This document shows, one piece after another, positions 36,608-51,354 of a stretch of 64,000 nt of DNA. How positions within the stretch are numbered: the stretch's first letter is position 1; every line of letters begins with the position of its first letter. A program made the translations under genes and the position numbers. The DNA is taken from the NCBI GenBank assembly GCA_963705305.1, contig OY970067.1:3936001-4000000 (forward strand). The letters are read 5' to 3'. Origin of the DNA: an uncultured Methylomirabilota bacterium. GTDB lineage: Bacteria; Methylomirabilota; Methylomirabilia; Methylomirabilales; 2-02-FULL-66-22. Under the pieces are notes generated by a model that was not told where the DNA came from, did no database searches, and worked only from the letters and a program-made list of their open reading frames with translations.

Positions 36608-36612
36608 GGGAA

Positions 36613-37041
36613 ATGCTCGAGGTCTTGGTGGTCGATGACGAGGAAGACATCTGCTGGGCCTTGGAGAATGGCTTGGCGGATGAGGGAGTGCACATCACCC
36701 GCGTCCTCCGAGCAGAGGATGCCATCGAAGCTGTCCGGGTGGGGAGATTTGACGCGGCCATCATTGACGTCAAGCTTCCCGGCAAGAGCGGGATCGAGGT
36801 CTCCCGCGTTATCCGGCAACTCGCACCACAACTCTCGATCGTGATGATTTCGGGTTTCCACTACGAGGAGGATCAGCCCATCCAGGAAGGGCTGCGGCGC
36901 GGAGATTTCCAAGGCTTCATGAGCAAGCCCTTTGAGCTCGATGACCTCTCGGCGTTCCTGCGGCAGGTCGTCAAGGAAGCCGGGAGTGGCCCCTCCAGCT
37001 GGCGATCGGCCAGGGGGGGCAACCCGAGAGGAGGTGAGTGA
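36613..37041 (+). CDS. Single-domain response regulator (GvrC-like position)
   Basis: [23 protein letters not shown]; own ATG 5 bp after the kinase's original stop. Confidence 0.88.
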
Positions 37042-37043
37042 GC

Positions 37044-37259
37044 ATGGCAGTCGAGAAGACCATCGCATCGTCCAGTTTGGTGGAAGTCGTGGATCGGATC
37101 CTGGACAAGGGTGTGGTCATCGATGCCTGGGTGCGGGTGTCCCTGGTGGGCATCGAGCTCCTGGCCATCGAGGCCCGGGCCGTGGTGGCGTCCGTGGAGA
37201 CGTACCTCAAGTACGCTGAGGCCATCGGCCTGACCGCCACCGCCGCCGCGCCTGCGTAA
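37044..37259 (+). CDS. gvpA: Major gas vesicle structural protein GvpA
   Basis: [74 protein letters not shown]. Confidence 0.98.
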
Positions 37260-37387
37260 AGCGGGACCGAGGCGCATGGAGGATCGATGCCGGGGCATCC
37301 TAGAGCGCAAGGCGCAAAGAGCATGTCCCGCCATCCCTCTTCCCTCCCACTTGTGAATGTCATGACAGCACACATGGAGGGTAGACA

Positions 37388-37753: not shown

Positions 37754-37791
37754 ATGAAACCGAAACCTCCGGATAGAGGTCACGGGATGTC

Positions 37792-38487
37792 ATGATGACA
37801 ATACCAGCTCAGATGGACCGCCTCACGCACGAGATCATTGCATCCTACGAGGCCCGGGTCGCTTCGGTCGAACAGATCATCGATGCGGCGCACGACATAT
37901 TGGACATCTTCCGGCGTCAGGGGGAGGCGGTGCGGGCAGAACTCCGAGAGAGCCTGGCCAAGGCCGCCTCGCTCAGACGCCGGGATTTCGATACCCTGAT
38001 GCGAGGGGTCTTGGCGCGGCAGGAAGAGCAAGAGGAGGCGGTGAAACGGACGATCCGTGTCTACCTCCAGGAGCAGCGAGTGCGCGCGGCATCGCTCAGG
38101 GAAATCATGGCGGGGCGCAGCGCCCTGCAAGCGGAGAGCCTGACGGACGTTCTGACCACGACGCATGCGCACTGGGCGGCGCGAGAGCGGGAAGTCCGGA
38201 GCCTGTTAGCCGACTTCCAGCATGAGCAGGAGGAGTTGGCGCGTGCCCTGAAAGAGCTCCTCGCACGTCCCGAGACCGCCGGAGTCAAGGCGCTCAAGGC
38301 CACCCTGAGGAGCCTCCAGATCAGATCGAGTACATTCGTGACACGGCTGCGAGACGCCAGTGCACGCGGTGCGGCACCTGAGGAATCCGGCGAGGAAGAT
38401 CAGGGAGGGCCGGAGAAGCAGCGCGCCCGTTCGGAAACCGCGCCCCTTGCATTCGCTATGGCAGCCCTGGGAGAGCTTCATGATTGA
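37792..38487 (+). CDS. Second GvpC-like coiled-coil protein
   Basis: All-helical; N-terminus resembles previous gene (M..LT.EI.A....R); lies between gvpA and gvpN. Confidence 0.5.
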   Translation: MMTIPAQMDRLTHEIIASYEARVASVEQIIDAAHDILDIFRRQGEAVRAELRESLAKAASLRRRDFDTLMRGVLARQEEQEEAVKRTIRVYLQEQRVRAASLREIMAGRSALQAESLTDVLTTTHAHWAAREREVRSLLADFQHEQEELARALKELLARPETAGVKALKATLRSLQIRSSTFVTRLRDASARGAAPEESGEEDQGGPEKQRARSETAPLAFAMAALGELHD

Positions 38488-39400
38488 GGAACTGACCACG
38501 GTCTTTGAGCCGGCCCCCCTGGCGGATTTTGTGGAGACCGAGTATGTCGCCGATCTGACCCGGCGAGCCCTCGGGTACCTGCAGGCCGGCTTCCCCGTCC
38601 ACTTTCGCGGGCCCTCGGGCACCGGGAAGAGCACCCTGGCACTGCATGTGGCCTCGAGACTCGGGCGCCCCGTGGTCTTGCTGCATGGCAACGAAACCTT
38701 CACCACCTCGGATCTCATCGGCGGGGAAAGCGGCTATCACCTGCGCAAAGTGGTCGATCGCTTTGTCACCCGCGTCTTGAAGGTGGAAGAGGACATGTCT
38801 CCGCGCTGGATCGACAACCGGCTCACCATCGCCTGTAAATACGGCTTCACACTGGTCTACGACGAGTTCACGCGATCCCGGCCGGAGGCGAACAACATCC
38901 TGCTCTCGATCCTCCAAGAGCGCATCCTGGACCTACCGAGCGCCCGGGGGGGAGACGAGAATCTCCTCCGCGTGCATCCCGACTTCCGTGCGCTCTTCAC
39001 CTCGAACCCGGAAGAGTACGCCGGCGTGCATCGGAGCCAGGACGCCTTGCGCGATCGGATGATCACCCTCGATCTTGACCACTTCGATGCGGCCACCGAG
39101 ATCGGGATCGTGCAGGGCAAATCGGGCCTCCCGAGGAAGGATGCGGAAAGCGTCGTCCGCGTCGTCCGGGGGCTCCGGGAGTCGGGGGCGTGCGAGTTCC
39201 CGCCGACCATTCGGGGGGCCATCATGATTGCGAAGTCGCTCCGGACCCTCAATGGGCACGCACGACCGCTCTACCGGAACGCGACCTTCTTGCAGATCTG
39301 CCAGGACATCCTGGCTTCGGAGACGAGCCGGGTGGGGAGCAGGACTAACCAGACCAAGGTGCGAGAGCTGGTGAAACGATCAGTCAGGCAGCTCCGCTAG
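38480..39400 (+). CDS. gvpN: Gas vesicle AAA+ ATPase GvpN
   Basis: GFPVHFRGPSGTGKS, DNRLTIACKYGFTLVYDEFTRSRPEANN, FTSNPEEYAGVH..QDALRDR. Confidence 0.96.
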   Translation: MIEELTTVFEPAPLADFVETEYVADLTRRALGYLQAGFPVHFRGPSGTGKSTLALHVASRLGRPVVLLHGNETFTTSDLIGGESGYHLRKVVDRFVTRVLKVEEDMSPRWIDNRLTIACKYGFTLVYDEFTRSRPEANNILLSILQERILDLPSARGGDENLLRVHPDFRALFTSNPEEYAGVHRSQDALRDRMITLDLDHFDAATEIGIVQGKSGLPRKDAESVVRVVRGLRESGACEFPPTIRGAIMIAKSLRTLNGHARPLYRNATFLQICQDILASETSRVGSRTNQTKVRELVKRSVRQLR

Positions 39401-39461
39401 CCCTGCCGGGGATAGGCATCGAGCGCTGACGGGCGGAGGCTCGCGGAAGGAGCGGATCGTC

Positions 39462-39785
39462 ATGCGGGGCGTGATCGACATCGGAGGATTTCGAGACATC
39501 CGCAGGATGCAGAGCGCGGGATGTCGTTCCATCCCCAAACTGCAGACCTCCGGATACCTCGAACTGTACATGCTCCACAAGGAACGAGAGCGGCTCCTCA
39601 AGGAAGAGGCCATCCTCGCCCGACGCCACGAGAGGAACCGGAAGCGCCTGGCGGAGATCCAGGCCCAGATGCAGGGCATGGACGGAGTCGTCCAACCGGA
39701 TCCCTCAGCTCCGCCAACCAAGCGGAGAGGAAACGGCTCCAGCCACGGGAAGCGGACGTGGAAGACCGTCCCCTTGAACTACTAA
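39462..39785 (+). CDS. Small basic coiled-coil gas vesicle accessory protein (GvpV-like position)
   Basis: Directly after gvpN; YLELYMLHKERERL coiled coil, terminal KTVPLNY. Confidence 0.55.
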   Translation: MRGVIDIGGFRDIRRMQSAGCRSIPKLQTSGYLELYMLHKERERLLKEEAILARRHERNRKRLAEIQAQMQGMDGVVQPDPSAPPTKRRGNGSSHGKRTWKTVPLNY

Positions 39786-39797
39786 GAAGGAGTGCTC

Positions 39798-40844
39798 ATG
39801 GAGGCCCTGCACCTGTACTGCGTCGCCACCCCTGGCACACGCCTGGACGCTGATCTCATCGGTCTCGCCGAGCACCCCGTCTCCGTCATCCGTGAAAAAG
39901 ATCTGTTCGCATTGGTGAGCCCGGCACCCCAGCGGCCCTACAAGGCGATGCCACGGGGGGAGATCCTTCCCCTCCTGGCGACCCACCAGGCCGTCATCGA
40001 ACAGGCCATGACCTGCCTCACCGTGGTCCCGGTGAAGTTCGGCACCGTGGTTCGTGATGAACAGGAGGTCCGCAGGATCCTGCGGAAGGCCCGCGGCTGC
40101 TTTGCCTCCGCCCTCGAGGCCCTCGCCGGGAATGTGGAACTCGACGTGGTGGCGCAGTGGCGGTCCCTCGATGCGGTGTTGCAGCACATCGCGGAAGAGC
40201 CGCAGATTTCGTCCCAGCGCGCGGCGATCGCGAACCAGCCGTCCTCCGCGACCGTGGATCCGCGGATCCGGATTGGTATGCTGCTGAAGGCTCGGCTGGA
40301 TGCGCTGCGGGAAGCGCGGTCAATCGAGATCCTGAAGGCGCTCTCGCCATTCGTCCAGGATTCCTGCCGTCATGCCCTCGCGGGTGATCGGATGCTCTTC
40401 AACGCCGCGTTCCTGGTGGATCGGACGCAGGAGGCGGCATTCACGCGGGCCCTGGAGGCGCTCGATCGTGGCTACGCGGACGCGGTCGATTTCCGCTGTG
40501 TCGGGCCACTCCCTGCCTATAGCTTCTGCACCCTGGAAATCAAGACGTTCGAGGTAGCGGGGGTCGAACGTGCGCGACAGGTGCTGGGGATCGGGGAGGC
40601 GGCCGGGGCGCCGGAGGTCCGGGCGGCATACCGGCGGCAGGCCCACCAGTGGCACCCCGATCGTGTCACCCAAAACCGTGACCCGGCCTCCGGCGACCCG
40701 AATCCCGTGTTCCAGGCGCTGACGGACGCCTACCGGTACCTGGAAGCGTACCTCGAGGTTGGAAGCTCACTCCACCCGAACGATGTCCGCTCTGCGGTGG
40801 CCGTGACGCGGTACCAATGGGCGCAGGATGCCGCACGTGCCTGA
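39798..40844 (+). CDS. GvpL/GvpF-family protein with C-terminal DnaJ (J) domain
   Basis: LYCV, HQAVIE, VPVKFGT, NAAFLVD, VGPLPAYSF, then VLGI...EVRAAYRR.A..WHPDR...FQALTDAY. Confidence 0.88.
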   Translation: MEALHLYCVATPGTRLDADLIGLAEHPVSVIREKDLFALVSPAPQRPYKAMPRGEILPLLATHQAVIEQAMTCLTVVPVKFGTVVRDEQEVRRILRKARGCFASALEALAGNVELDVVAQWRSLDAVLQHIAEEPQISSQRAAIANQPSSATVDPRIRIGMLLKARLDALREARSIEILKALSPFVQDSCRHALAGDRMLFNAAFLVDRTQEAAFTRALEALDRGYADAVDFRCVGPLPAYSFCTLEIKTFEVAGVERARQVLGIGEAAGAPEVRAAYRRQAHQWHPDRVTQNRDPASGDPNPVFQALTDAYRYLEAYLEVGSSLHPNDVRSAVAVTRYQWAQDAARA

Positions 40845-41589
40845 ATACGGAAAGTACCTGTACGGCATCATCGCCGCCGACGAGGCGCGGAACTTCGGTC
40901 CCATCGGGATTGGGGGTCGAGAGGTGGAAACCATCCACCACCAACATCTCAGCGCGGTGATCAGCTCCATCCCGTTGCCCCAGTGTGTCCTCAGCAAAGA
41001 GAGCCTCCTGGCCCACGAGCGGGTCCTGGAGCGGGTGATGGCCGAATACACGGTCCTGCCGGTCAAGTTTTATACGGTCGGGGCCAACGTCGAGGAGATC
41101 CAACGTCTGATCGAGCTGCGGTATCAAGAGCTCCTGTTCGTGCTGCGTGACCTGGAGGGCAAGGTGGAGCTTGGGGTCAAGGCGACATGGCGCGAGATGC
41201 GCAGCGTGCTCCAGGAAATCGCGGGCGAGCACCCGGAAATCAAGCGCCTGAAGGAGAAGGCGGCCGAGAAGCCCCCGCACCCGAGCTATGCGGAAGGCGT
41301 CGCGATCGGGGAGATGGTCGCGGCCGCCCTCGAGGCAAAGAAAACCCAAGAGGCGGAGGTGATCCTGGCCGGGTTGCGGCGACTGGCGGTGAATTACCGG
41401 CTCAACCGTACCATCGGGGAGCGGATGCTCCTGAACGCCGCCTTCCTGGTCGATCGCGCCCGGGAGCACGAGTTCGATGCGGAGGTGGATCGGCTGGACC
41501 ATCGCCATGGCGGACGGACCAAGTTCACCTACGTGGGACCGGTCCCCCCCTACAACTTCGTCAACATCACCCTGCGGCCGGGCGACTGA
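40828..41589 (+). CDS. gvpF: GvpF/GvpL-family gas vesicle protein
   Basis: GKYLYGII, AHERVLE, VLPVKF, GKVELGVK, LNAAFLVD, GPVPPYNFV. Confidence 0.9.
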   Translation: MPHVPEYGKYLYGIIAADEARNFGPIGIGGREVETIHHQHLSAVISSIPLPQCVLSKESLLAHERVLERVMAEYTVLPVKFYTVGANVEEIQRLIELRYQELLFVLRDLEGKVELGVKATWREMRSVLQEIAGEHPEIKRLKEKAAEKPPHPSYAEGVAIGEMVAAALEAKKTQEAEVILAGLRRLAVNYRLNRTIGERMLLNAAFLVDRAREHEFDAEVDRLDHRHGGRTKFTYVGPVPPYNFVNITLRPGD

Positions 41590-41607
41590 GTCGGCGAGGA
41601 CCCTTGC

Positions 41608-42351
41608 ATGGGAAAGTACATTTACTGCATCACCGAGGCCCCCGAGGGGGAGCATTTCGACGCGGCAGGGATCGATGGACCCGGGGCGGAGGTGGCGGCC
41701 CTCGCTTTCGATGGGATTGCCGCAGTGGTGAGCGAGGCACCCGTCAAGCGCTATCGCGTCTGCCGCGAGAATGCCCTCGCGCACGAGTGCGTGATCGAAG
41801 CGGTTTTCGCCCGTCACCCTGTGCTCCCCGTCCGATTCTGTACGATCGCCCAGGATGAGGCGACGGTGCGGACCATCCTCGAGCGTGAGCTCGCGGAGTT
41901 CCGGAGGATGCTGGAGCATATGCGGGGACGGATGGAGATCGGGGTGAAAGCCATCTTCCCGGAGGCTCGGATTTACCAGACGATCCTGGACCGCCATGAG
42001 GAGATCCGGCGCCGGAAGCAGGCCGTGGCATTGCTGCCGCCGCAGCAGGCGCACTGGCAGCTCCTCGCGATCGGGAAGATGGTGGAAGAGGCCCTGGTGC
42101 GAGAGAAAGCCGCCGTGCGAGAGGAGATCCTCCAGAGCCTGGAAGGGGCGGCCTGCGAGTGCCGCGTGAGCGAGCGCCTGATGGGCGAGCGGATGATCGT
42201 CAATGCCGCCTTCCTGGTGGAGCGGGCGTCCGAGCCGGAGTTCGATCGGCGATTGAATGCCCTGGCCGACCGCTACGCGGACCTGGTCACCTTCAAGTGC
42301 GTGGGGGACGCCCCCCCGTTCAACTTCGTGGACCTGGTCGTCGCGATATAG
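41608..42351 (+). CDS. gvpF: GvpF/GvpL-family gas vesicle protein
   Basis: GKYIYCI, AHECVIE, VLPVRF, NAAFLV, PPFNFV. Confidence 0.88.
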   Translation: MGKYIYCITEAPEGEHFDAAGIDGPGAEVAALAFDGIAAVVSEAPVKRYRVCRENALAHECVIEAVFARHPVLPVRFCTIAQDEATVRTILERELAEFRRMLEHMRGRMEIGVKAIFPEARIYQTILDRHEEIRRRKQAVALLPPQQAHWQLLAIGKMVEEALVREKAAVREEILQSLEGAACECRVSERLMGERMIVNAAFLVERASEPEFDRRLNALADRYADLVTFKCVGDAPPFNFVDLVVAI

Positions 42352-42358
42352 CGCGCCT

Positions 42359-42625
42359 ATGCTCCTCGTGGACGATCTCCTCGCGCTTCCGTACCGGGGC
42401 CTACTAGGTGTGTTCCAGAAGATCGCCGAACTGGCCGACCGGGAGCTGAACGATGCGGAGTTCCTCCAGGAGAAGCTCCTCGAGCTCCAATTGCTCTACG
42501 AGATGGATGAGCTCGGCGAGGAGGAGTACGCGCTGAAAGCCGCGGTGTTGGAGACCAGGCTCAATGCTGTCAGGGAGGCGGAGGAGGTCGAGCCGGAAAC
42601 CGAAGAGGGAGATGCTGAAGCGTGA
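42359..42625 (+). CDS. gvpG: Gas vesicle protein GvpG
   Basis: MLLVDDLLALPYRGL..VF..I...AD.EL...L..KLLELQ..YE..E..EEEY. Confidence 0.88.
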   Translation: MLLVDDLLALPYRGLLGVFQKIAELADRELNDAEFLQEKLLELQLLYEMDELGEEEYALKAAVLETRLNAVREAEEVEPETEEGDAEA

Positions 42626-42684
42626 CCGTGGAGAGATGCCCAGTTGGTTGTCCAACAACGGCTGCCGCGGGGGAAGAGGGACGG

Positions 42685-42963
42685 ATGGAATTCAATGAGG
42701 TCAGAAGGATCGCGACCTACTTCCTCAAACGACCCCTTCAAAAGGACGGGGCACCGGTCAGGATCGACAAGACGTATGAGGGGTGGGAGGTCCAGTTCGG
42801 GGCGATCGAGCCCACCGTCTGTATTCGAACGCTGGGGATCCCTGCCTCCGTCCGTGGCCGTTTCCTTGATGTGATCACGCTGGGTGGCGGGCTCCAGACC
42901 CTGTCGGGCGAGCGGCTCGCCTCTGGTACGGAGTCCGCCCGCGCCTCCTCTCGGACCGCATAG
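42685..42963 (+). CDS. GvpO-like protein, divergent or decaying
   Basis: VRIDKTYEGWEVQF beta-strand motif; position between gvpG and gvpJ. Confidence 0.5.
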   Translation: MEFNEVRRIATYFLKRPLQKDGAPVRIDKTYEGWEVQFGAIEPTVCIRTLGIPASVRGRFLDVITLGGGLQTLSGERLASGTESARASSRTA

Positions 42964-42975
42964 GGGCCATTGACC

Positions 42976-43275
42976 ATGCCCTCATCATCGGCGATCTCGC
43001 ACAGCGTGCAGAGCACCAACCTGGCCGACATCCTCGAGCGGGTCCTGGACAAGGGGATCGTCATCGCCGGGGATATTAAGATTAACATCGCCGACATCGA
43101 GCTGCTCAGCATCAAGATCCGGCTCCTCGTGGCTTCGGTGGAGAAGGCCAGGGAGATGGGGATTGATTGGTGGCAGAGCGATCCGGCCCTGTCCTCGAGG
43201 GCCAAGAGCCTTGAGGAAGAGAATCGGCAGCTCCACGAGCGACTGGATCGGCTAGAGGCCCGCCTTGGCGGGTGA
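42976..43275 (+). CDS. gvpJ: GvpA/J-family gas vesicle protein GvpJ
   Basis: NLADILERVLDKGIVIAGDI.I..ADIELL.IKIRLLVASVEKA.EMGIDWW..DP. Confidence 0.93.
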   Translation: MPSSSAISHSVQSTNLADILERVLDKGIVIAGDIKINIADIELLSIKIRLLVASVEKAREMGIDWWQSDPALSSRAKSLEEENRQLHERLDRLEARLGG

Positions 43276-43286
43276 GGGAGGCAGCC

Positions 43287-43802
43287 ATGCGCAAACGGGT
43301 GGAACGCGGGGGGCTCGGCCTGGGCGATCTTTTTCACGGGGTCGCAGATCTCATTGATCTCCTCAAGGAGATGGAGGCGGAGGGGAAGACCGAGCGCACC
43401 CGCACCGGCGAGATCACAGGCAGCGGGCAATTGAAGGACCTGAAGGGGGTCTATGGGTTCAGCGTAAAGGTCGGCCTCGGCGGCACCCCGACGGTCGAGA
43501 CTTTCGGGAACATTCGCAAGAGCGAAACGGGGCCGGTGGTCGAAGAGGTGCGTGAGCCCCTGGTGGACCTCTTCGATGAAGGAGACGTCATGCGGGTGAT
43601 CGCGGAACTCCCCGGGGTGGAGTCGACGGACATCGCGACCGAGCTGGAGGGCGACATCCTCACCATCACCAGCCGGGGCAAGGCGCACAAGTACCAGAAG
43701 GAGGTCCTCCTGCCCTCCAAGGGACAGGCGGACTCGCTGAAGACCAGCTATCGGAACGGCATTCTGGAGATCACGCTGCGGAAGACCAGGGACGGCGCAT
43801 GA
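43287..43802 (+). CDS. Hsp20/alpha-crystallin protein (GvpH-like)
   Basis: GVYGFSVKVG, REPLVDLFDE, AELPGV, YRNGILEI. Confidence 0.9.
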   Translation: MRKRVERGGLGLGDLFHGVADLIDLLKEMEAEGKTERTRTGEITGSGQLKDLKGVYGFSVKVGLGGTPTVETFGNIRKSETGPVVEEVREPLVDLFDEGDVMRVIAELPGVESTDIATELEGDILTITSRGKAHKYQKEVLLPSKGQADSLKTSYRNGILEITLRKTRDGA

Positions 43803-44782
43803 AACTCGTCCTGTTCGGCGGCAAGGGAGGCGTCGGGAAGACCACGTGTGCCGCGGCAGCCGCGCTTGAGCTGGCCGGCGCCGGCCATCGGACGCTCCTG
43901 GCCTCGACCGATCCGGCCCACTCTCTCTCTGACGCCCTGGAGCAGGAGATTGGTCCCGAAATCCAGGCGGTGAACGGGGTCCAGAACCTCTTTGCGCTGG
44001 AGATTTCTGCTGAAAGCCTGTTCCGGAAGTTCAAGGCAGACCACGGGGCGGAGTTGCGGCACCTCCTCGTAACCGGCACGTATCTCGACGCGGAGGATCT
44101 GGACGACCTCTCGTCCCTCTCCATCCCCGGCCTCGATGAGGTGATGGCGCTCAAGGAGCTCGTGGACCTGATGGAGTGCAGCGCGTACGAGTATTACCTC
44201 CTGGATACCGCCCCCACGGGCCACGCCCTCCGCCTCCTCGCGCTCCCTGACCTCGTCGAGCAGTGGATCCGCGTCCTGGCGCGGCTCCGGTACAAGTACC
44301 TCGCCATGATCCGCAGCATCGCCCAGCGCGAGATTCATGAGACGGCGGACGACTTCCTGTTCAGCCTGAAGCGAGGCGTGCGGCGCGTCCAGGAACTCCT
44401 CCACGACCCGGAGCGCTGCGAGTTCCTGGTCGTCGGGCTTCCTGAAGCGATGGTGATCGCCGAGACCCGGCGTCTTCTCCAGGAACTGAGCCGCCAGCAG
44501 ATTCCCGTCCGGCACCTCCTCGTGAATCATGTCGCCTCCAGCGAGCGGGGAACGTGCCCCTTCTGTCACGAGCGCTGGCAGGCCCAGCGGAAAGTCCTCC
44601 AGGAATATTCGGCGTCCTTCGCGGCGCTCAAGGTCTACAACCTCTTGGAGCGCCCGCACCCGATCCGGGGCCTTGCGCAACTGCGAGAGCTCGGATTCCC
44701 CATTCGGTGGCTGGAGCGGGAGCGCTCTGCAGGGGCAAGCGCGGGCATCGAGGATCAGGCATGGGTACTCCACACACGGTGA
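43799..44782 (+). CDS. ArsA/Get3-family ATPase, single domain
   Basis: GGKGGVGKTT, STDPAHSL, IPGLDE, DTAPTGH, CPFC. Confidence 0.92.
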   Translation: MKLVLFGGKGGVGKTTCAAAAALELAGAGHRTLLASTDPAHSLSDALEQEIGPEIQAVNGVQNLFALEISAESLFRKFKADHGAELRHLLVTGTYLDAEDLDDLSSLSIPGLDEVMALKELVDLMECSAYEYYLLDTAPTGHALRLLALPDLVEQWIRVLARLRYKYLAMIRSIAQREIHETADDFLFSLKRGVRRVQELLHDPERCEFLVVGLPEAMVIAETRRLLQELSRQQIPVRHLLVNHVASSERGTCPFCHERWQAQRKVLQEYSASFAALKVYNLLERPHPIRGLAQLRELGFPIRWLERERSAGASAGIEDQAWVLHTR

Positions 44783-46896
44783 CATTGCGGGTGGCGGAAG
44801 CGCTGCCCAAAGATGTGGGGCGCGGGATCGCGCGCCTGGATCCCGAGGACATGAAGGCCCTCGAAATCGAGGTGGGCGACATCGTCCAGGTCCAGGGGAA
44901 ACGCCAGACCGTGGCCAAGGCCATGCCCGCCTTCCAGGAGGCCAGAGGGAAGGGGATCGTCCAGGTCGACGGCCTTGTCCGGACCAATGCCCAGGTGGGG
45001 CTGGACGAGCGGGTGGCGATCGCCAGGGACGAGGCCAGACCGGCCGTGAAGCTGACCCTCGCGCCTCTCTCCTCCCAACGCATAAGCCAGCGCGAGCCGG
45101 ACACCCGCTACCTTGCGCGCCTCCTGGAGGGGCTTCCGCTCATCGCCGGCGACCGTATCCGCGCCGTGCTCTTCGGCACCATGGCCCAGGAGTTCACGGT
45201 GGTTGAAACTGCCCCCACCGGCCCGGTGGTCGTCCGGGCGGCCACCGCCCTCCGCCTGCACCATCCCGAAGGCCCCGGCGAGACTTCCCAGATCTCGTAC
45301 GAAGACATCGGGGGGCTTCGGCGAGAGATCCAGCGCGTGCGAGAGATGATCGAGCTCCCCCTGAAGTACCCCGAAGTCTTCGAGCACCTGGGGATCAAGG
45401 CGCCGAAGGGCGTGCTCCTCCACGGGTCACCCGGCACCGGTAAGACACTCATCGCGAGGGCTGTGGCGAACGAGACCGAGGCGCGGTTCTTCGCCGTGAG
45501 TGGTCCCGAGGTCATCCACAAGTTCTACGGTGAGTCGGAGGCCAAGCTCCGGCAACTCTTCGAGGAGGCCGAGCGGCATGCTCCGAGCATCATCTTCCTG
45601 GATGAGATTGACGCCATCGCCCCCAAGCGCGAGTCGGTGGTGGGGGAGGTAGAGAAACGGGTGGTGGCGCAGCTCCTCGCCCTGATGGATGGACTCCGGT
45701 CCCGCGGTCAGGTGATCGTGATCGGGGCGACGAACATCCCGAATGCACTGGACCCCGCCCTGCGCCGGCCGGGCCGTTTCGATCGCGAGATCGCCATTGG
45801 GATCCCCGACAAAGGGGGGAGGCGGGAAATCCTGGAGATCCACACCCGGGGGATGCCGCTGGCGGAGGACGTGGACCTGGACGAGCTCAGTGAGTCCACC
45901 CACGGGTTCGTGGGCGCGGATCTGGAGGCCCTCTGCCGGGAGGCAGCCATGGCCGCGCTCCGAGCTTTGCTCCCGCGGATCACGTTCGAGGTTGGAGCCA
46001 TTCCCTACGAGGCCGTCATGGAACTCCGGGTCCATCGGACCCATTTCTTCGAGGCGATGAAGGAGGTCGAGCCCTCGGCCCTGCGGGAGATCAGTGTGGA
46101 GGTCCCGGACGTCCGGTGGGGGGACGTCGGCGGATTGGAGAATGTGAAGCGCGAGCTCGTGGAGGCCGTCGAGTGGCCGCTCCGCTATGCGGCGCTCTTC
46201 AGCCATGCGGGTGCCCGGCCGCCCCAGGGGATCTTGCTCCATGGAGCGCCCGGCAGCGGAAAGACGCTGCTGGCCAAGGCCCTGGCCACCGAGAGCCGGG
46301 CCAACTTCATTGCCATCAAGGGCCCCCAGCTGATGTCCAAATGGGTGGGAGAGAGCGAACGCGCGATCCGGGAGATCTTCAAAAAGGCCAAGCAAGCCGC
46401 CCCCTGCGTGGTCTTCCTGGACGAGGTGGACGGCCTGGCCCCCCGGCGGGGACTGGATCCATCCGGCGTGGCGGAACGAGTCCTGAGCCAGTTGCTCACC
46501 GAGCTGGATGGCATCGAAGAGCTGCGCGGTGTGGTGGTGCTGGCGGCCACAAACCGGCTGGATCTCGTGGAGCCGGCCCTCGTGCGGCCGGGGCGATTCG
46601 ACTCCGTCATCGAGGTATCCTTGCCCGACACGAAAGCGAGGCTCGAGATCTTCACGATCCACACTCGCAAGCAGCGGCTGGCTCCCGACGTGGACTTGAC
46701 GGTGCTGGCCAGGCAAAGTCAGGGGCTCTCCGGCGCGGAGATTGAGGCTACCTGTCGGAGGGCAACGATGATGGCGATCCGGGAGTACCTGGAGGCTTAC
46801 CCAAACGGGGCGGATTCCGGGTTCCAGGAATATGCGGTGCGAATGGCTCGTTTGGAGGAGGCGCTGACGAGCTTCCGGAAAGGACGTGTGGGATGA
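44761..46896 (+). CDS. CDC48/p97/VAT-family AAA+ ATPase
   Basis: N-domain (DVGRGIARLD, RTNAQVG), YEDIGG, GSPGTGKT, ALRRPGRFDRE, WGDVGG, GAPGSGKT, RPGRFD. Confidence 0.95.
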   Translation: MGTPHTVTLRVAEALPKDVGRGIARLDPEDMKALEIEVGDIVQVQGKRQTVAKAMPAFQEARGKGIVQVDGLVRTNAQVGLDERVAIARDEARPAVKLTLAPLSSQRISQREPDTRYLARLLEGLPLIAGDRIRAVLFGTMAQEFTVVETAPTGPVVVRAATALRLHHPEGPGETSQISYEDIGGLRREIQRVREMIELPLKYPEVFEHLGIKAPKGVLLHGSPGTGKTLIARAVANETEARFFAVSGPEVIHKFYGESEAKLRQLFEEAERHAPSIIFLDEIDAIAPKRESVVGEVEKRVVAQLLALMDGLRSRGQVIVIGATNIPNALDPALRRPGRFDREIAIGIPDKGGRREILEIHTRGMPLAEDVDLDELSESTHGFVGADLEALCREAAMAALRALLPRITFEVGAIPYEAVMELRVHRTHFFEAMKEVEPSALREISVEVPDVRWGDVGGLENVKRELVEAVEWPLRYAALFSHAGARPPQGILLHGAPGSGKTLLAKALATESRANFIAIKGPQLMSKWVGESERAIREIFKKAKQAAPCVVFLDEVDGLAPRRGLDPSGVAERVLSQLLTELDGIEELRGVVVLAATNRLDLVEPALVRPGRFDSVIEVSLPDTKARLEIFTIHTRKQRLAPDVDLTVLARQSQGLSGAEIEATCRRATMMAIREYLEAYPNGADSGFQEYAVRMARLEEALTSFRKGRVG

Positions 46897-47264
46897 GGGG
46901 CAATATTCTCCTGGTGGAGCCGGAGGAGGCCACAGCTCGTTCCCTGGCAGCGATTCTCACCCGGGCGGAGTTCACGGTCCTCACCGCCGAGACGGGCCAC
47001 GAAGCCCTGCGCCTGGTGCACCGGGAGCCGCCGGATCTCATCATCCTGGATCTGGAGCTCCCAGGAATGGACGGCCTTGAGACGCTCCGGCAGCTCCGAG
47101 AGCACGGCGTGACGGCGAAGGTCATGATCCATGCGGCTCATGGGACGCCCCGGCATGCCAGGGAGGCACGGGCGCTGGGGGCCCGGGAGTTCCTCGGCAA
47201 GCCCTTCGACGTGCACCGACTCCTCTGCATTGTGAACGGGGAGGTCGGGGAACGGGTGATGTAG
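46893..47264 (+). CDS. Single-domain response regulator within gvp operon (atypical acidic pocket)
   Basis: ILLVEPE, IILDLELPGMDG, GKPF; ATGA coupling. Confidence 0.85.
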   Translation: MRGNILLVEPEEATARSLAAILTRAEFTVLTAETGHEALRLVHREPPDLIILDLELPGMDGLETLRQLREHGVTAKVMIHAAHGTPRHAREARALGAREFLGKPFDVHRLLCIVNGEVGERVM

Positions 47265-47896
47265 TGAGTGTCCCAGAGGCGAGACGGCTCATCTATATCC
47301 CCATCATCCACGATCTGGCGGATATGGGGACCAAGGCTGAGCCGTTGAAACAGGCATTCATCCGCCGCTTCGGCCTTGATCAGTGGGAGCGCCGCCGTGC
47401 GCTCATCGCCGATGTCTGGGGAGGCATCCGGCAGAAACTGCTGGGTCGGGATCTCCCTTGGGACCGCGTGCGGATCTACCAGGACGGGCTTCCGATTTCG
47501 GGAAAAGAGCTGGAGATCGCGAGCGATGTGGCCGTGCAGGGGAGCCAGAATTACCGGCTGGTGCTAGAGTTGGTGGGGAAAGGTGCCACGCTGATGGGGA
47601 CGGAATCACCGGACCTCCTACTCCGGGAGTACCGGCTGATCAGCCGGATGGTCGAGGCGCACCCCGTGGTGCAGCCGGACACCGCCGGTCGGGAGTCCGA
47701 TGCGGAAGCGCAGGAGATCCTCGGTGCCCGGGATGCATTCATTGCCCGCCGGGTCTCCGACACCTTGGGCAACGCCGGTATCGGCGTTCTCTTCCTCGGC
47801 ATGATGCATCAGGTGGATCAACTCCTTCCCAAAGATATTGCGGTCGAATTCCTCATCGATCGACTTCCCCTGTGGGAGGTGGCAGCGGAGGACTGA
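47264..47896 (+). CDS. Hypothetical protein in gvp operon
   Basis: Overlaps both neighbours; LIYIPIIH..ADMG, IYQDGLP, GTESP, RD.FIA, LFLG..H segments look conserved. Confidence 0.72.
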   Translation: MSVPEARRLIYIPIIHDLADMGTKAEPLKQAFIRRFGLDQWERRRALIADVWGGIRQKLLGRDLPWDRVRIYQDGLPISGKELEIASDVAVQGSQNYRLVLELVGKGATLMGTESPDLLLREYRLISRMVEAHPVVQPDTAGRESDAEAQEILGARDAFIARRVSDTLGNAGIGVLFLGMMHQVDQLLPKDIAVEFLIDRLPLWEVAAED

Positions 47897-48699
47897 TGGC
47901 CCCTGCGATCGGCTGGTACCTGTACGCCTTGTTCTCTCCAGCAACGCTGCCGCCGATGAACGGCATTGACGGCGTGTCGCCGGTCTGCCTCTTCGCCTGG
48001 GCGGACGTTGGGGCCCTCTTTAGCTCAGTCCCGCTGGCTGAATTTGGCGAGGAGGCCCTTCAGCGAAATATACAGGATACTCGCTGGCTGGAGGAGAAGG
48101 TGCGGCACCATGAAGCCGTGGTCGAGGCGGCCATGCGCACAGGGCCAGTCCTCCCCATGAAGTTTGGCACGATCTTCGTCGACTTGAAGAAGATCGGCGA
48201 CCTGATCAAAGACAACGCCCCTACGCTCCGCGCTTCTCTTGAAGAGCTCCGCGACAAGGAGGAGTGGGGAGTGCGCGGATTCGCGAACCGGGTGATCCTC
48301 CGGGCCGCGACCCTTCAGCACGACCCCGCCCTCCGAGCCCTATCCGAAGCGGCGAGCGCCCAATCGCCAGGGCAGGCCTTTTTTCTCAGGAAGCGAGTTG
48401 AAGCGCTGGCCTCGACGCGATCTCAAGACCGGAGGCAGGCGCTTGTGCTTGAAGCGCGCGCGACGATCCAGACGACGGTCGTGGCACTGGCAGACCAGCG
48501 TCCCCTGATCACCGATGCGTCAGGGGACGAGGAGATTGTCTTAAACATGGCCTGTCTCGTGCGGCAAGAGGGTGTCGGATCCTTCCTCGCTGCCGCGAAC
48601 CAGTGGAACCAGAACCATGGTGGGGAAGGACCGCGGCTTGTCGCCTCCGGGCCCTGGCCCCCCTATCACTTTGTCCCGAGGCTCGAAGGAAGTGGATAG
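47896..48699 (+). CDS. gvpL: GvpL/GvpF-family gas vesicle protein
   Basis: WYLYA, HEAVVE, VLPMKFGTIF, EEWGVR, LNMACLV, SGPWPPYHF. Confidence 0.88.
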   Translation: MAPAIGWYLYALFSPATLPPMNGIDGVSPVCLFAWADVGALFSSVPLAEFGEEALQRNIQDTRWLEEKVRHHEAVVEAAMRTGPVLPMKFGTIFVDLKKIGDLIKDNAPTLRASLEELRDKEEWGVRGFANRVILRAATLQHDPALRALSEAASAQSPGQAFFLRKRVEALASTRSQDRRQALVLEARATIQTTVVALADQRPLITDASGDEEIVLNMACLVRQEGVGSFLAAANQWNQNHGGEGPRLVASGPWPPYHFVPRLEGSG

Positions 48700-48898
48700 A
48701 AACGAATCGGCACCCAGTCTGGAACGGCAGGTGACGCTCCTGGAGACGCTGGATCGCCTCCTCAACAAGGGGGTAGTCGTGGCCGGAGACGTGACGCTCT
48801 CGGTGGCGGACGTTGACCTGATCTACCTCGGCCTTCGACTCTTGCTCTCCTCGGTAGAGACCGCAAGAGCGCGGAGCGCTACAAGTGTCAGGGAGTGA
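48692..48898 (+). CDS. Third GvpA/J/M-family protein (GvpS/GvpM-like)
   Basis: TLLETLDRLLNKGVVVAGDVTLSVADVDLIYLGLRLLLSSVET. Confidence 0.88.
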   Translation: MDRNESAPSLERQVTLLETLDRLLNKGVVVAGDVTLSVADVDLIYLGLRLLLSSVETARARSATSVRE

Positions 48899-48901
48899 GC
48901 T

Positions 48902-49630
48902 GTGGATGGGTTCTATTTCTATGGCGTCGTCAGGCGGCCGGAACTCGCACCGTGTCGAGTCTGCGGCCTTGGCGGCAGTCCCACGCTCTTCATCCCGTTT
49001 CGAGACCTCGCAGCAGTCGTTAGCCTATCTCGTCTCTCTCCCTGGCCTGCGGATGAGACACATCTGAACCTCCACGAAGCTGTCGTGGAGGAGCTAATGC
49101 GTTCCCAGCCCATCCTCCCGGCCCGCTTCAACACCTTCCTACCCACCGAGGAGGCGACCATCCGCCTCCTCCAGGAAAGGGGGCAGGAATTCCACGTCAC
49201 CATCGAGCGCGTCAAGGGAAAGGCCGAGCTGGGGCTCCGCATCCTTTGGGACCCGCCGGGCGATCCCGTGATGCCCGAGGGTCAGCCTGTAGCGACAGAG
49301 GAACCTGGGAGCGAGTATCTGAGACGGCGCACCCAGCAGGAGCAGCGTCGCAGGGCACAACGCCGCGAGGGCGAGGCGCTGATCCGGTCGCTCCACGGGG
49401 CACTCCAGCCGCTGGCTTCAGAATTCCGGCTGCGTTCATTCCTCAGCAACCGGTCCCTCTTTGCCGCGGCCTATCTCGTGGAGCAGGAGCGTCTTGGTGC
49501 GTTTCACGAATCTGTGGAAGAAAGACTTGCGGAGTCTCCGCAGCTTGGGTTTCTTCTCACTGGTCCCTGGCCTCCTTATAGCTTCGTCAATGGAGTCGAA
49601 AATGGGATCGCAAATCGTCTCCGTCTCTGA
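48902..49630 (+). CDS. GvpL/GvpF-family gas vesicle protein
   Basis: YFYGVV, HEAVVEE, ILPARF, GKAELGLR, AYLV, TGPWPPYSFV. Confidence 0.88.
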   Translation: MDGFYFYGVVRRPELAPCRVCGLGGSPTLFIPFRDLAAVVSLSRLSPWPADETHLNLHEAVVEELMRSQPILPARFNTFLPTEEATIRLLQERGQEFHVTIERVKGKAELGLRILWDPPGDPVMPEGQPVATEEPGSEYLRRRTQQEQRRRAQRREGEALIRSLHGALQPLASEFRLRSFLSNRSLFAAAYLVEQERLGAFHESVEERLAESPQLGFLLTGPWPPYSFVNGVENGIANRLRL

Positions 49631-49946
49631 GGGCTCGCTGACGGATTTCGAGGGGGAGTTGGGCCGCCTCACCGATGCGCTCCCGTCGAGGGTCAATGCG
49701 GATCCCGAGCGGGTGGAACAGGGGCTGGCCAAGTTGGTGCTCACCCTCATCGAACTCCTGCGCGGCCTGCTTGAAAAGCAGGCCATCCGGCGCGTCGAGG
49801 GGGGCTCACTCACGCCGGAGGAGATTGAGCGCATGGGCCTCACGTTCCTGCGACTCGAGCGGAGGATGGCCGAGCTTCGAGATCACTTCGGCCTCAGCCA
49901 GGAAGACCTCACCCTGTCGCTCGGGTCACTCGGAGAGCTGAGGTGA
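49602..49946 (+). CDS. gvpK: Gas vesicle protein GvpK
   Basis: DPERVEQGLAKLVLTLIELLR.LLEKQAIRRVEGGSLT.EEIERMG...L.L.LG.LG.L. Confidence 0.93.
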   Translation: MGSQIVSVSEGSLTDFEGELGRLTDALPSRVNADPERVEQGLAKLVLTLIELLRGLLEKQAIRRVEGGSLTPEEIERMGLTFLRLERRMAELRDHFGLSQEDLTLSLGSLGELR

Positions 49947-51158: not shown

Positions 51159-51354
51159 GCTCTGTTTTAGGTCGGATTGCCATAATTGTTCGAGGAATGA
51201 CTTCATGCCTAATTTTGCCTACATCCCAGGAAGAAAGCAATCACGAAAACCAGGGAGAATCTTCCACTAATACCGACCACAAGATGTAGAGACTGGTTGC
51301 GTCAAGTGAATATGCCCTTGCGATCAAATGAGCACGCAGGAAAAGGGATCGGGG

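Follow-up and report, generated by a model that had tools for sequence, protein, structure and literature searches.

Accessory proteostasis modules, which probably serve the gas-vesicle (gvp) cluster that encodes them and whose functions we infer from family membership, gene neighbourhood and structure prediction, have been identified in a 64,000-nt stretch of DNA (the window) from an uncultured Methylomirabilota bacterium. Gas vesicles are flotation organelles, and the same proteostasis set, in roles that can so far only be presumed, is encoded repeatedly in gas-vesicle operons across many bacterial phyla.

The cluster occupies approximately positions 37038–49946 in a single orientation (Table 1), and is the only gvp cluster found by a whole-genome search in the 5.65-Mb genome. 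Pfam and NCBIfam matches, together with that search, place gvpA, gvpN, three further gvpF/L, gvpG, two gvpJ/M-like genes and gvpK around four chaperone-type genes. The preliminary description of the region had presented hsp20, an ArsA-family ATPase gene and a full CDC48 gene as consecutive overlapping genes of the gvp operon, and the overlaps read from the sequence bear this out: hsp20 and arsA share 4 nt (ATGA), and arsA and the CDC48 gene, 22 nt. The CDC48 gene further overlaps a receiver-domain gene by 4 nt, which overlaps a Tiki/TraB-like gene by 1 nt, and the latter overlaps a gvpL gene, also by 1 nt. The fourth chaperone-type gene, a gvpL/F with a J domain and an intact HPD, is likewise where it had been described, with matches to both domain families and the HPD in the context QWHPDR.

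Table 1. Genes of the gvp cluster in the window and the matches supporting them (positions in the window)
Product	Coordinates	Strand	Evidence
gvpA, main shell protein	37038..37259	+	PF00741 62.2 bits; NF006874 132.7 bits (cut-off 100)
Conserved 231-aa protein between gvpA and gvpN	37792..38487	+	tblastn relatives
gvpN, AAA+ ATPase	38480..39400	+	TIGR02640 329 bits (cut-off 266.8); start ATG at 38480
Conserved 107-aa coiled-coil protein after gvpN	39462..39785	+	weak DUF7491 match only
GvpL/F with C-terminal J domain and HPD	39798..40844	+	PF06386 201 bits; PF00226 (DnaJ) 31.4 bits (cut-off 27.8); ORF 39792–40844, start ATG 39798
gvpF paralogue	40828..41589	+	PF06386 227 bits
gvpF paralogue	41608..42351	+	PF06386 213 bits
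gvpG, hydrophobic N terminus	42359..42625	+	PF05120 48.2 bits; true start ATG 42359
113-aa protein	42622..42963	+	relatives in L235 and several second-sample loci
gvpJ-like, GvpA family	42970..43275	+	PF00741 63.7 bits
gvp-type Hsp20	43287..43802	+	PF00011 25.2 bits (cut-off 20.8); NF041800 147 bits (cut-off 140)
Single-domain ArsA/Get3-like ATPase, 327 aa	43799..44782	+	PF02374 238.5 bits; TIGR00345 239.6 bits (cut-off 135)
CDC48/VAT-type double-ring AAA+ unfoldase, 711 aa (likely start)	44761..46896	+	TIGR01243 941.6 bits (cut-off 802.65)
Stand-alone receiver (CheY-like) domain	46893..47264	+	PF00072 93.2 bits
Conserved 210-aa Tiki/TraB/ChaN-like-fold protein, putative hydrolase	47264..47896	+	codon-position GC; tblastn; AF2 fold
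gvpL/F paralogue	47896..48699	+	PF06386; ATG at 47896
gvpJ/M-like, GvpA family, start uncertain	48617..48898	+	PF00741 59 bits; whole-genome match
gvpF/L paralogue	48902..49630	+	PF06386 171.5 bits
gvpK, start 49590 or 49602	49602..49946	+	PF05121 107 bits at 49689–49940

The listed start of the CDC48 ORF, GTG at 44554, was rejected, as the N domain begins at residue 77 of that ORF; the likely start is the ATG given in Table 1, behind GAGGA. A longer gvpG ORF was rejected, its 5' part being non-coding by codon-position GC, and a 438-aa ORF from 47383 reflects no gene but a wrong frame that happens to stay open, given its GC pattern and a PF06386 match beginning at its residue 177. The preliminary description had overlooked the true CDC48 start, the receiver domain and the Tiki/TraB-like protein.

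Two samples spanning more than 15 phylum labels were analyzed, the first consisting of the 80 closest CDC48 relatives in species genomes, and the second, of another 80 loci. Genes of the gvp set are present in 68 loci of the first sample (52 out of 54 among loci of at least 15 kb) and in 78 of the second, which is the co-occurrence that the preliminary description expected from a neighbourhood survey; the gvp linkage of the chaperone genes is not chance. In the first sample, Hsp20 is encoded within 1.5 kb of CDC48 in 67 loci and immediately precedes it in the same orientation in 57, while the contiguous Hsp20–ArsA–CDC48 trio is found in 61 loci out of 80 of the second sample, 50 of them with the J-domain GvpL/F (J-GvpL). 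No gvp gene was found near CDC48 in two full 22-kb loci (L034, L084) and three loci of 8–12 kb (L013, L029, L078). Among 201 genomes of the window's phylum, 15 have GvpN, and in nine of these CDC48 is on the same contig within ~10 kb.

These observations make it highly improbable that ordinary stress or arsenic-resistance genes have come to lie in the gvp cluster by accident. An Hsp20 with an AAA+ ATPase indeed forms an archaeal heat-shock pair, an Hsp20-family gene is immediately upstream of a CDC48 in three out of five archaeal genomes, and the window ATPase belongs to the ArsA family. Still, the linkage is kept in both samples over many phyla, and housekeeping CDC48, sHSP and ArsA paralogues are encoded elsewhere in the same genome. 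Pfam matches to ars families are absent from all 22 ORFs scanned at 33479–54442, and the window ArsA has a single domain, which the pump ATPase does not. Moreover, gvp-linked ArsA proteins group by themselves, as had been predicted for dedicated genes: one 80-row clade (support 96) takes in each of the 60 halves from two-domain gvp-linked proteins and 12 out of 13 gvp-linked single-domain proteins, and the 62 single-domain rows without gvp linkage all fall outside it. Within the ArsA tree, the window protein falls in a 9-row clade sister to both halves of two-domain gvp ArsA (support 72).

The same prediction holds only in part for CDC48. The second CDC48 of the genome (51% identical) is placed separately, in a clade of 14 rows (support 100) that lack gvp and Hsp20 neighbours, but the gvp-linked rows do not come out as one clade in the better-model tree, where several groups of them meet archaeal and housekeeping clades at a polytomy; a single gvp-linked clade is not rejected by the AU test (p 0.362).

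The presence of hsp20 and arsA in some gvp clusters, given as known in the preliminary description, is in print. As stated in the part of Castillo & Saier (2010, PMC2963123) considered here, gvp clusters from several phyla contain genes for an ArsA-family ATPase and Hsp20 and lack further ars genes beside them, and the ATPase was proposed to energise a step of biogenesis, with Hsp20 as a chaperone. The ATPase described there has two domains and ~637 aa, compared to the single-domain protein of the window, and that part of the paper does not mention CDC48, the J-domain fusion or the Tiki/TraB-like gene. In the literature searched, this arsA/hsp20 link was the only one found for the present gvp set.

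The preliminary description had further proposed one dedicated pathway, by which GvpA would be delivered and vesicles would be remodelled or recycled. The dedication stands, as linkage and clades mark the genes as gvp-dedicated and not passengers; the single pathway does not, as the four occur independently. Hsp20 and CDC48 without ArsA are found in 57 out of 80 loci of the first sample, ArsA without CDC48, in 13 out of 17 gvp loci retrieved by similarity to ArsA, and J-GvpL, in 13 loci of the first sample and 64 of the second. Hence the parts are separable modules and not one obligate four-part pathway. CDC48 was not seen in four of the 15 genomes of the phylum that have GvpN, nor in the 13 ArsA-type loci, so many gas-vesicle systems can do without the modules; to our knowledge, the well-studied clusters of Halobacterium, Anabaena, B. 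megaterium and Serratia work without CDC48.

The core of the set would be the Hsp20–CDC48 pair, of the archaeal heat-shock type. In that type the AAA+ ATPase is presumably a Cdc48 homologue. Passages of PMC10653856 describe a co-regulated sHSP gene and AAA+ ATPase gene in the heat-shock regulons of Phr (Pyrococcus) and HSR1 (Archaeoglobus); the window pair is of the same composition, but sits in a bacterial organelle operon and not under a heat-shock repressor. Hsp20 of the window, the sole full-length match of the genome to NF041800 (the "archaeal Hsp20" model of NCBI), has a conserved N-terminal region of 85 aa, after which comes the alpha-crystallin domain (42-row alignment). It may serve GvpA-family proteins, which are prone to aggregate, as a holdase, similar to GvpH for GvpM in haloarchaea. 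GvpH of Halobacterium is also a small Hsp20-like accessory protein, although the window protein scores below the cut-off of the GvpH model (16.9 vs. 22 bits) and differs in its conserved N-terminal region; no CDC48 is known to accompany GvpH in the halobacterial cluster. According to passages of PMC6107691, GvpH keeps GvpM soluble and prevents its aggregation, and is non-essential, vesicles formed without it being fragile.

The alpha-crystallin domain of Hsp20 is predicted to sit on the CDC48 N domain, docking into its cleft, a contact that is new here. For CDC48 residues 1–185 with Hsp20 the complex prediction yields ipSAE of 0.75 (runs 0.75, 0.76 and 0.75), compared to 0.10 for the best of three controls; the tool's mark is reached by 116 out of 157 solved complexes and two out of 215 mismatched pairs, a calibration that is only rough here, as the input alignments were self-built and the score expresses model confidence. 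The runs have at least 51% of contacts in common, with partner pLDDT of at least 61. Positions 38–41 and 55–58 of CDC48 and 105 and 156–161 of Hsp20 belong to this predicted interface. In both proteins conservation is higher at the interface than over the remaining residues (0.72 vs. 0.64 in the N domain and 0.76 vs. 0.59 in Hsp20), while the agreement of housekeeping paralogues with the gvp consensus is lower at the interface than elsewhere (0.26 vs. 0.48 and 0.32 vs. 0.39).

The best solved relative of the window CDC48 is VAT of Thermoplasma acidophilum (5g4f, 744.7 bits over residues 5–679), and the N domain, D1 and D2 of VAT and archaeal Cdc48 are all present, here in a bacterial, gvp-linked and Hsp20-partnered protein. 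All 41 aligned rows agree in the Walker A and B motifs, the D1 pore loop and the arginine fingers, and differ at the D2 pore-loop aromatic position; the loops of the window protein, KFYGES and KWVGES, resemble, as we take it, those of VAT. The proteasome-docking HbYX tail is absent from this protein, which ends in FRKGRVG, and from every bacterial row of the alignment. Thus built, with the motifs of both rings intact, CDC48 could work as a VAT-like double-ring unfoldase that threads and releases Hsp20-held GvpA-family clients, the outcome being quality control or disaggregation as shells are assembled, or else removal of clients from vesicles that are faulty or have collapsed. Both the clients and the choice between assembly and disassembly are what we infer. 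As 20S-proteasome-like genes are present elsewhere in the genome, a protease-coupled role is possible.

The two other modules would add to this core. The ArsA-family protein has a C-terminal CxxC (C253, C256) invariant in 29 out of 29 rows, a feature common with Get3/TRC40 and chloroplast/cyanobacterial ARSA1; in Get3 it is the zinc site of the dimer. Its best solved relatives are ARSA1 (5zme, 1.9e-75), archaeal Get3 (3zq6, 3ug6) and eukaryotic Get3. Unlike for Get3/TRC40, its neighbours are Gvp proteins, with no membrane receptor or tail-anchored client evident. As a homodimer it may shield a hydrophobic Gvp segment in an ATP-dependent cycle, candidates being the N-terminal helix of GvpG or GvpJ, its usual gene neighbours. 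In J-GvpL, a full GvpL/F domain, as in GvpF/GvpL accessory proteins, is combined with a J domain, as in class III J-domain proteins. Both domains are present in 117 out of 120 homologues among the matches listed, and the HPD is invariant in 30 out of 30 aligned relatives; through its J domain, the protein could bring the cell's housekeeping DnaK to the assembly complex of GvpF/L. The fusion is common, despite no coverage of it being found in the literature searched.

The receiver domain and the Tiki/TraB-like gene belong to the module as additional conserved members, a membership that is new here, and may put it under phospho-control, the latter as a putative hydrolase. The receiver gene is less than 3 kb from CDC48 in 45 out of 80 loci. 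The Tiki/TraB-like gene, whose coding status is supported by codon-position GC, has tblastn matches in 55 out of 80 loci (54 on the same strand) and in 17 out of 80 loci of the second sample, and is therefore not an obligate partner. Its product is annotated as "hypothetical protein". The AF2 model (pLDDT 86) is nearest in fold to the Tiki/TraB/PrgY/GumN–ChaN–EreA superfamily, compared to which the protein is shorter: ChaN (Z 9.8, rmsd 4.3, 159 aligned) and HopBA1 (Z 8.4) are followed by EreC, the C-terminal region of Pasteurella toxin and RRSP. H16, E114 and H182 are invariant in 36 out of 36 rows; PF01963 matches, seen in 21 of these 36 relatives, are weak, all below the cut-off, and cover just the C-terminal 45 residues.

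These two genes suggest a rather unlikely alternative, signal-controlled disassembly, where phosphorylation of the receiver would cause CDC48 to extract GvpA-family subunits from existing or collapsed vesicles, and the Tiki/TraB-like hydrolase or cell proteases would destroy them, so that the cell could actively lower its buoyancy. The frequency of both genes in the first sample, the invariant residues in a Tiki/ChaN-like fold, the VAT-type pore loops, and several sensor kinases and a sigma-54 activator flanking the cluster agree with it. The rarity of the Tiki/TraB-like gene in the second sample, its sub-threshold Pfam matches and the lack of the HbYX tail do not, and we know of no hydrolase activity in the protein's own family; assembly and disassembly otherwise fit the data alike.

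The flanking regulators also bear on a quite improbable reading, in which the ATPases would target regulators rather than shell proteins. In haloarchaea, GvpD reduces the amount of the activator GvpE; CDC48 and Hsp20 would likewise unfold a transcription factor of the cluster or render it inactive. The sigma-54 activator (33479–34990), a PAS-HisKA-REC protein (35125–37041), the receiver gene within the module, and KaiB and KaiC-like genes downstream of the cluster are in line with it. However, the surrounding regulators are not conserved with the module (KaiC-like matches in 0 loci), the Hsp20–CDC48 pair stays beside gvpJ or gvpL/F genes across phyla, and the partner Hsp20 is akin to the GvpH holdase class.

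Of the remaining conserved genes, the 231-aa and 113-aa proteins have no family match in Pfam or NCBIfam. The former occupies the gvpA–gvpN interval, presumably the gvpC position of known clusters, and tblastn relatives are in the same position in L229, L231, L235, L095 and L096, as well as in those second-sample loci that were listed. Relatives of the coiled-coil protein come after gvpN in many loci.

All four chaperone-type genes named in the preliminary description (Hsp20, ArsA/Get3-like ATPase, CDC48 and J-GvpL, a GvpL/F protein fused to a J domain) are present in the gas-vesicle (gvp) cluster, each passing its curated family cut-off. The source genome is a single contig of 5.65 Mb with about 65% G+C; it lacks a second gvp cluster, and the one in the window is the sole one found. 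All genes of the cluster are on the same strand, with short gaps or overlaps between them (see the table); both Hsp20 and ArsA, and CDC48 and the receiver gene, overlap by 4 nt. The listed CDC48 ORF begins at 44554; as the N domain starts only at ORF residue 77, we moved the start to a downstream ATG with a GAGGA motif, so that CDC48 overlaps the ArsA stop by 22 nt. Neither a family nor relatives were detected for the 121-aa ORF after gvpA, and it may not be a gene. Pattern searches yielded 49 sigma-54 matches vs. 55.5 expected and one sigma-70 site vs. 1.8 expected, neither above chance, and 12 terminators vs. 8.0 expected, not counted as above chance. In a search for sequencing data sets with 39792–46896, none of RNA was listed, and the only DNA ones had small shares (0.10 and 0.05).

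Genes of the gvp cluster in their order, flanking genes and rejected reading frames
Feature	Position	Strand	Remarks
Upstream regulator block	29618–37041		directly 5' of gvpA: hybrid kinase, NarL-type regulator, receiver, sigma-54 activator, PAS-HisKA-REC protein
gvp cluster	37038 to about 49946	+	
gvpA		+	
ORF		+	121 aa
Conserved unknown protein	37792–38487	+	231 aa, no family
gvpN	from 38480	+	true start
Conserved coiled-coil protein	39462–39785	+	107 aa, no family
J-GvpL		+	
gvpF		+	
gvpF		+	
gvpG	from 42359	+	true start
Unknown protein	42622–42963	+	113 aa, no family
gvpJ		+	
Hsp20		+	
ArsA/Get3-like ATPase		+	327 aa
CDC48	from 44761	+	711 aa
Receiver domain		+	stand-alone
Putative Tiki-like protein	47264–47896	+	210 aa, conserved
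gvpL		+	
gvpJ/M-like gene		+	
gvpF		+	
gvpK		+	
KaiC-like protein	49954–50877		just 3' of gvpK; weak NCBIfam match, 3e-09
KaiB-domain protein	51328–51690		PF07689, 6e-23; precedes PAS/GAF histidine kinase
Rejected ORF	47383–48699		438 aa, "GvpL with N-terminal extension"; wrong frame
Rejected ORF	49675–49941		wrong frame

CDC48 scores 941.6 bits as a whole protein against TIGR01243 (cut-off 802.65), and its N domain consists of two subdomains, PF02359 (CDC48_N, 89.9 bits) and PF02933 (CDC48_2, 36.8 bits). Residues invariant in all 41 aligned rows are G225, G227, K228, T229, D281, E282, F255, Y256, G257, R339 and R342 in D1, and G498, G500, K501, T502, D554, E555, V529, G530, R609 and R612 in D2; together they span Walker A and B, the arginine fingers and the D1 pore loop. 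The aromatic position of the D2 pore loop is W in the window protein and variable among the 41 rows. Archaeal Cdc48/VAT docks on the 20S proteasome via a C-terminal HbYX motif. This motif is absent from the window CDC48, which ends in ...FRKGRVG, and a penultimate Tyr is found in none of the bacterial rows compared, being present in the sole archaeal row (L207, ...VPYYR).

Hsp20 has an alpha-crystallin domain (PF00011, 25.2 bits vs. cut-off 20.8; NF041800, 147 vs. 140) matching the solved domain 4rzk at 1.9e-16; its GvpH (PF05455) score, 16.9 bits, is below the Pfam gathering cut-off of 22. It is the only full-length NF041800 match in the genome; the four other sHSP genes match this family over the C-terminal part only.

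In J-GvpL, the GvpL/F domain (PF06386) scores 201 bits over profile positions 2–244 of 245, and the J domain (PF00226), 31.4 bits vs. the cut-off of 27.8. The HPD motif, described earlier as intact, indeed reads ...QWHPDR..., and H288, P289 and D290 are invariant in all 30 rows aligned (27–53% identity). Both domains occur together in 117 of the 120 listed homologues. Moreover, when an HMM built from the 30-row alignment was applied to the first set of loci (the window and its phylum's three wide loci among them), all 17 J-domain matches fell within GvpL/F ORFs. The cluster itself has no DnaK gene; the two that the genome encodes lie at other sites.

The ArsA/Get3-like protein scores 239.6 bits against TIGR00345 (cut-off 135), and the GKGGVGKTT (deviant Walker A), DPAHS and DTAPTGH switch motifs show no or almost no variation across 29 rows. 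Unlike the ATPase of the ArsA arsenite pump, with two homologous halves per chain, it has one ArsA domain, and its TIGR04291 score is 130.9 bits vs. the cut-off of 650; among solved structures, ARSA1 and Get3 proteins come closest to it, rather than the E. coli pump. A CxxC pair forms the zinc site of the Get3 homodimer. The corresponding C253 and C256 are invariant in all 29 close relatives. No ars families (arsB/acr3/arsD/arsR linkage) were found among the 22 ORFs scanned at 33479–54442, and gvp-linked arsA genes are likewise without ars linkage according to Castillo and Saier (PMC2963123).

Linkage of these genes to gvp genes, expected in the preliminary description, is borne out by neighborhood surveys. 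The first sample comprised the best 80 CDC48 relatives in one-genome-per-species contigs (58–68% identical, with about 11 phyla named in the titles), on whose loci the window's proteins were mapped by tblastn. At least one gvp gene is present in 68 of these 80 loci, and in 52 of the 54 loci of at least 15 kb. In 67/80 loci CDC48 has an Hsp20 gene no more than 1.5 kb away, and in 57/80 directly upstream on the same strand. ArsA is seen in 23/80, mostly as a two-domain gene after gvpG, and never (0/80) between Hsp20 and CDC48. The second sample, 80 loci fetched with a CDC48 from a Chlorobiaceae gvp locus, represents Bacteroidota (32), Chlorobiota (18), Planctomycetota (13) and nine other phylum labels, with three rows unplaced. 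Here gvp genes are found in 78/80 loci (40/40 of those of at least 15 kb), Hsp20 within 1.5 kb of CDC48 in 70/80, and a single-hit ArsA in 68/80. A contiguous same-strand Hsp20–ArsA–CDC48 trio is present in 61/80 loci, and 50/80 have both the trio and a J-GvpL fusion; therefore, the four-part set of the window is a common cluster type. A cluster of this type is carried by the cultured Chlorobium phaeovibrioides BrKhr17 (locus L285). J-GvpL as such was identified in 13/80 loci of the first sample and 64/80 of the second one.

Within the phylum of the window, GvpN was found in 15 of the 201 genomes sampled. In nine of these, CDC48 is encoded no farther than about 10 kb away on the contig that carries GvpN; in two it is on another contig, and in four none was found. 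The order Hsp20–ArsA–CDC48–receiver–GvpL recurs in six other genomes of the phylum (G003, G071, G079, G089, G120, G124).

At the same time, Hsp20 and CDC48 occur without ArsA in 57/80 first-sample loci, and only four of the 17 gvp loci reached through ArsA likeness have CDC48. L146 is not counted among the 17, as its sole gvp match is a 28% GvpN-like one on the opposite strand. Hence Hsp20–CDC48, ArsA and the other parts are separable modules, and the single four-step pathway initially suggested is too strong a reading.

For the ArsA family, a scan with a single-protein query returned no relatives, and the scan with alignment A1 (ArsA) used patterns that are too general and yielded mostly generic ArsA; its rows were used solely as outgroups and to obtain ArsA-type gvp loci. 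In the FastTree phylogeny of 153 ArsA rows, gvp-linked proteins form a clade of their own, as anticipated, with 80 rows and support 96. Every N-half (30) and every C-half (30) of the two-domain gvp-linked proteins falls inside it, as do 12 of 13 single-domain proteins linked to gvp genes; the 62 non-gvp single-domain rows all lie outside. In the two-domain clusters the ArsA gene lies between gvpG and gvpJ. The CDC48-adjacent single-domain proteins make up a nine-row clade (support 96), placed with weak support (72) as sister to both halves together. Judging by the alignment, a CxxC near the C terminus marks the gvp-ArsA clade: by a crude regular-expression count, the final 40% of the sequence contains C..C in 66 of its 80 members and in 7 of the 73 remaining rows.

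The corresponding expectation for CDC48 held in part. The genome encodes a further complete CDC48 (51% identical) whose surroundings, out to 8 kb, contain neither Hsp20 nor gvp genes; in the FastTree phylogeny of 133 CDC48 rows it belongs to a 14-row clade (support 100) of non-gvp loci only, and the gvp-linked copy stands apart from it. A single clade of gvp-linked CDC48 did not emerge. All 78 gvp-linked rows fall into two clades of 31 and 58 rows, whose remaining 11 rows come from short loci or Hsp20-adjacent loci with no gvp gene seen, and under a site-heterogeneous model (quick IQ-TREE, 55 rows) the CDC48 backbone is a polytomy. The AU test does not reject a single clade of 31 gvp-linked rows (delta lnL 3.46, p 0.362), a result compatible with one origin of gvp-linked CDC48 and not a demonstration of it.

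One close CDC48 relative, from a Thermodesulfovibrionales MAG (L034), is accompanied by two Hsp20 genes and a two-domain ArsA, and the 10 kb to each side of it are free of gvp genes. Because an internal stop interrupts its CDC48 frame, it was excluded from alignment A4 (CDC48). In a genus of the same order (L175–L190, L232–L234), 14 of the 18 genomes have a non-gvp CDC48 scoring about 990 bits on the CDC48 model; as it nests among archaeal CDC48 rows in both trees, an old transfer from archaea is hinted at.

The pairing of Hsp20 and CDC48 was also examined by complex prediction. With CDC48 residues 1–185 and Hsp20, using our own alignments of 41 and 42 rows, ipSAE is 0.75, 0.76 and 0.75, the best of three controls reaching 0.10; of 157 solved complexes 116 pass the tool's mark, as do 2 of 215 mismatched pairs, a calibration that is only rough here because own alignments were used. 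The runs have at least 51% of contacts in common, with partner pLDDT of at least 61. The predicted interface involves alpha-crystallin residues 92–110, 133–134 and 154–161 of Hsp20, and 17, 21, 37–41, 53–58, 92, 120–126 and 157–160 of CDC48, which we take to be the adaptor cleft between the two N subdomains. We know of no solved sHSP–Cdc48 complex, and for this reason the score probably does not come from the model's memory. Conservation is 0.72 at the interface vs. 0.64 at other positions in the CDC48 N domain, and 0.76 vs. 0.59 in Hsp20; in two housekeeping CDC48 clades without an Hsp20 neighbor, agreement with the gvp consensus is 0.26 at the interface vs. 0.48 elsewhere and 0.32 vs. 0.39, and archaeal rows show no difference (0.47 vs. 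0.45), all these being raw, descriptive values from small samples. The prediction thus supports, and does not show, binding of Hsp20 to the CDC48 N domain.

The p97 SHP box has the form FxGxGxxh. A similar role of the N-terminal GLGGxFKGLG... motif of Hsp20 was considered and dropped, as the interface predicted with confidence involves the alpha-crystallin domain and not this motif.

In three of five archaeal genomes an Hsp20-family gene lies directly 5' of CDC48 on the same strand, and the Phr and HSR1 heat-shock regulons, according to PMC10653856, contain an sHSP gene and an AAA+ ATPase gene. Considering both, the gvp pair looks like a co-opted archaeal-type heat-shock pair. In a family of the same class (L197, L199–L202), a second, divergent Hsp20-like gene (24–27% identical) is located 3' of CDC48, which thus lies between two sHSP genes.

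The gene following the receiver has a coding GC pattern, unlike the overlapping N-terminal extension of the rejected 438-aa ORF, and is therefore considered real. Its relatives are present in 55/80 first-sample loci (54 on the same strand) and 17/80 second-sample loci; the protein has no Pfam or NCBIfam match of its own, and the protein atlas labels its clusters "hypothetical protein" only. Invariant residues include R7, H16, E114, R156, D157 and H182. In a search with its AF2 model (pLDDT 86, pTM 0.82), just two of 48161 chains reach Z of at least 8, namely ChaN (Z 9.8, rmsd 4.3, 159 aligned) and HopBA1 (Z 8.4), with EreC, the C-terminal region of Pasteurella toxin and RRSP ranking lower; Foldseek returned nothing at E up to 0.001. 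PF01963 (TraB/PrgY/GumN) matches 21 of 36 relatives below threshold (E up to 1) in the C-terminal 45 residues; in eight relatives scanned singly the best score is 18.8 bits vs. 26.8, with profile positions 182–245 of 263 covered at most. The product is probably a divergent Tiki/TraB-superfamily protein, perhaps a hydrolase. In 45/80 loci a receiver domain is encoded no more than 3 kb from CDC48.

Added to the observed genes, motifs, gvp linkage and separation from housekeeping copies, the following scheme may be proposed. Hsp20 would hold GvpA-family proteins, much as GvpH keeps GvpM soluble according to PMC6107691, and would hand them to CDC48 as a VAT-like unfoldase. CDC48 would unfold and release clients, serving quality control and disaggregation, a reading favored over proteasomal coupling because of the missing HbYX tail, although 20S-like genes are encoded elsewhere in the genome. 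The Get3-like dimer would shield a hydrophobic segment, and DnaK would be recruited to the GvpF/L complex through the J domain. The module may serve assembly or regulated disassembly, the latter gaining some weight from the receiver and the Tiki-like gene. On a tentative and rather doubtful reading, Hsp20–Cdc48 would be an ancient two-part machine, with the sHSP a true N-domain cofactor whose alpha-crystallin domain sits in the adaptor cleft, and held clients passed straight to the unfoldase by an Hsp70-independent route from holdase to AAA+ motor. The pair would act in the heat-shock response of archaea and would have been co-opted, along with the Get3-like ATPase, the GvpL with its J domain and a Tiki-like hydrolase under phospho-control, for building or dismantling the gas-vesicle shell in more than 15 bacterial phyla.

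Two adjacent proteasome-family genes outside the window (G000:C1:5044722–5050317 of the same genome) adjoin a gene for an AAA ATPase of the ARC/Mpa-like kind, so that the genome may encode a 20S proteasome system of the bacterial type.

Gas vesicles are, to our knowledge, the only protein shells known to hold gas. The gene complement described here bears on how an extremely hydrophobic shell protein stays soluble, gets inserted and gets removed, and has practical weight too, as gvp clusters have been engineered as acoustic reporter genes. Since widespread environmental gvp clusters carry their own unfoldase, holdase, Get3-like ATPase and Hsp70 recruiter, they may use ATP-driven chaperoning steps that are absent from the model clusters, and specific genes can be named for addition or deletion when clusters are expressed heterologously. 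If the predicted Hsp20–Cdc48 N-domain contact is real, it would also define a novel type of Cdc48 cofactor, one that matters for the heat-shock response of archaea.

That Hsp20 and ArsA-like genes are known from gvp clusters, as stated previously, agrees with Castillo and Saier (2010; PMC2963123), where both arsA and hsp20 are reported. In full-text searches that covered few subscription journals, no paper came up in which gvp clusters are connected with CDC48, a J-domain GvpL, Get3 or a TraB-like gene; Cdc48d appears in a gas-vesicle paper only as an unspecific Ni-NTA binder. What is new is the occurrence of gvp clusters with an undescribed, widely conserved chaperone complement.

The cluster is flanked upstream by sensor kinases, response regulators and a sigma-54 activator, and downstream by a KaiC-like gene, KaiB and a PAS/GAF kinase. 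The PAS-HisKA-REC ORF, the last of the upstream block, overlaps the gvpA start by 4 nt, and no relatives of the KaiC-like query were found in related gvp loci. The family-less proteins of 231, 107 and 113 aa have the same positions across related clusters: the first follows gvpA, the second follows gvpN and the third precedes gvpJ. These positions may match the gvpC, gvpV/O and gvpW/K-like slots of known clusters.
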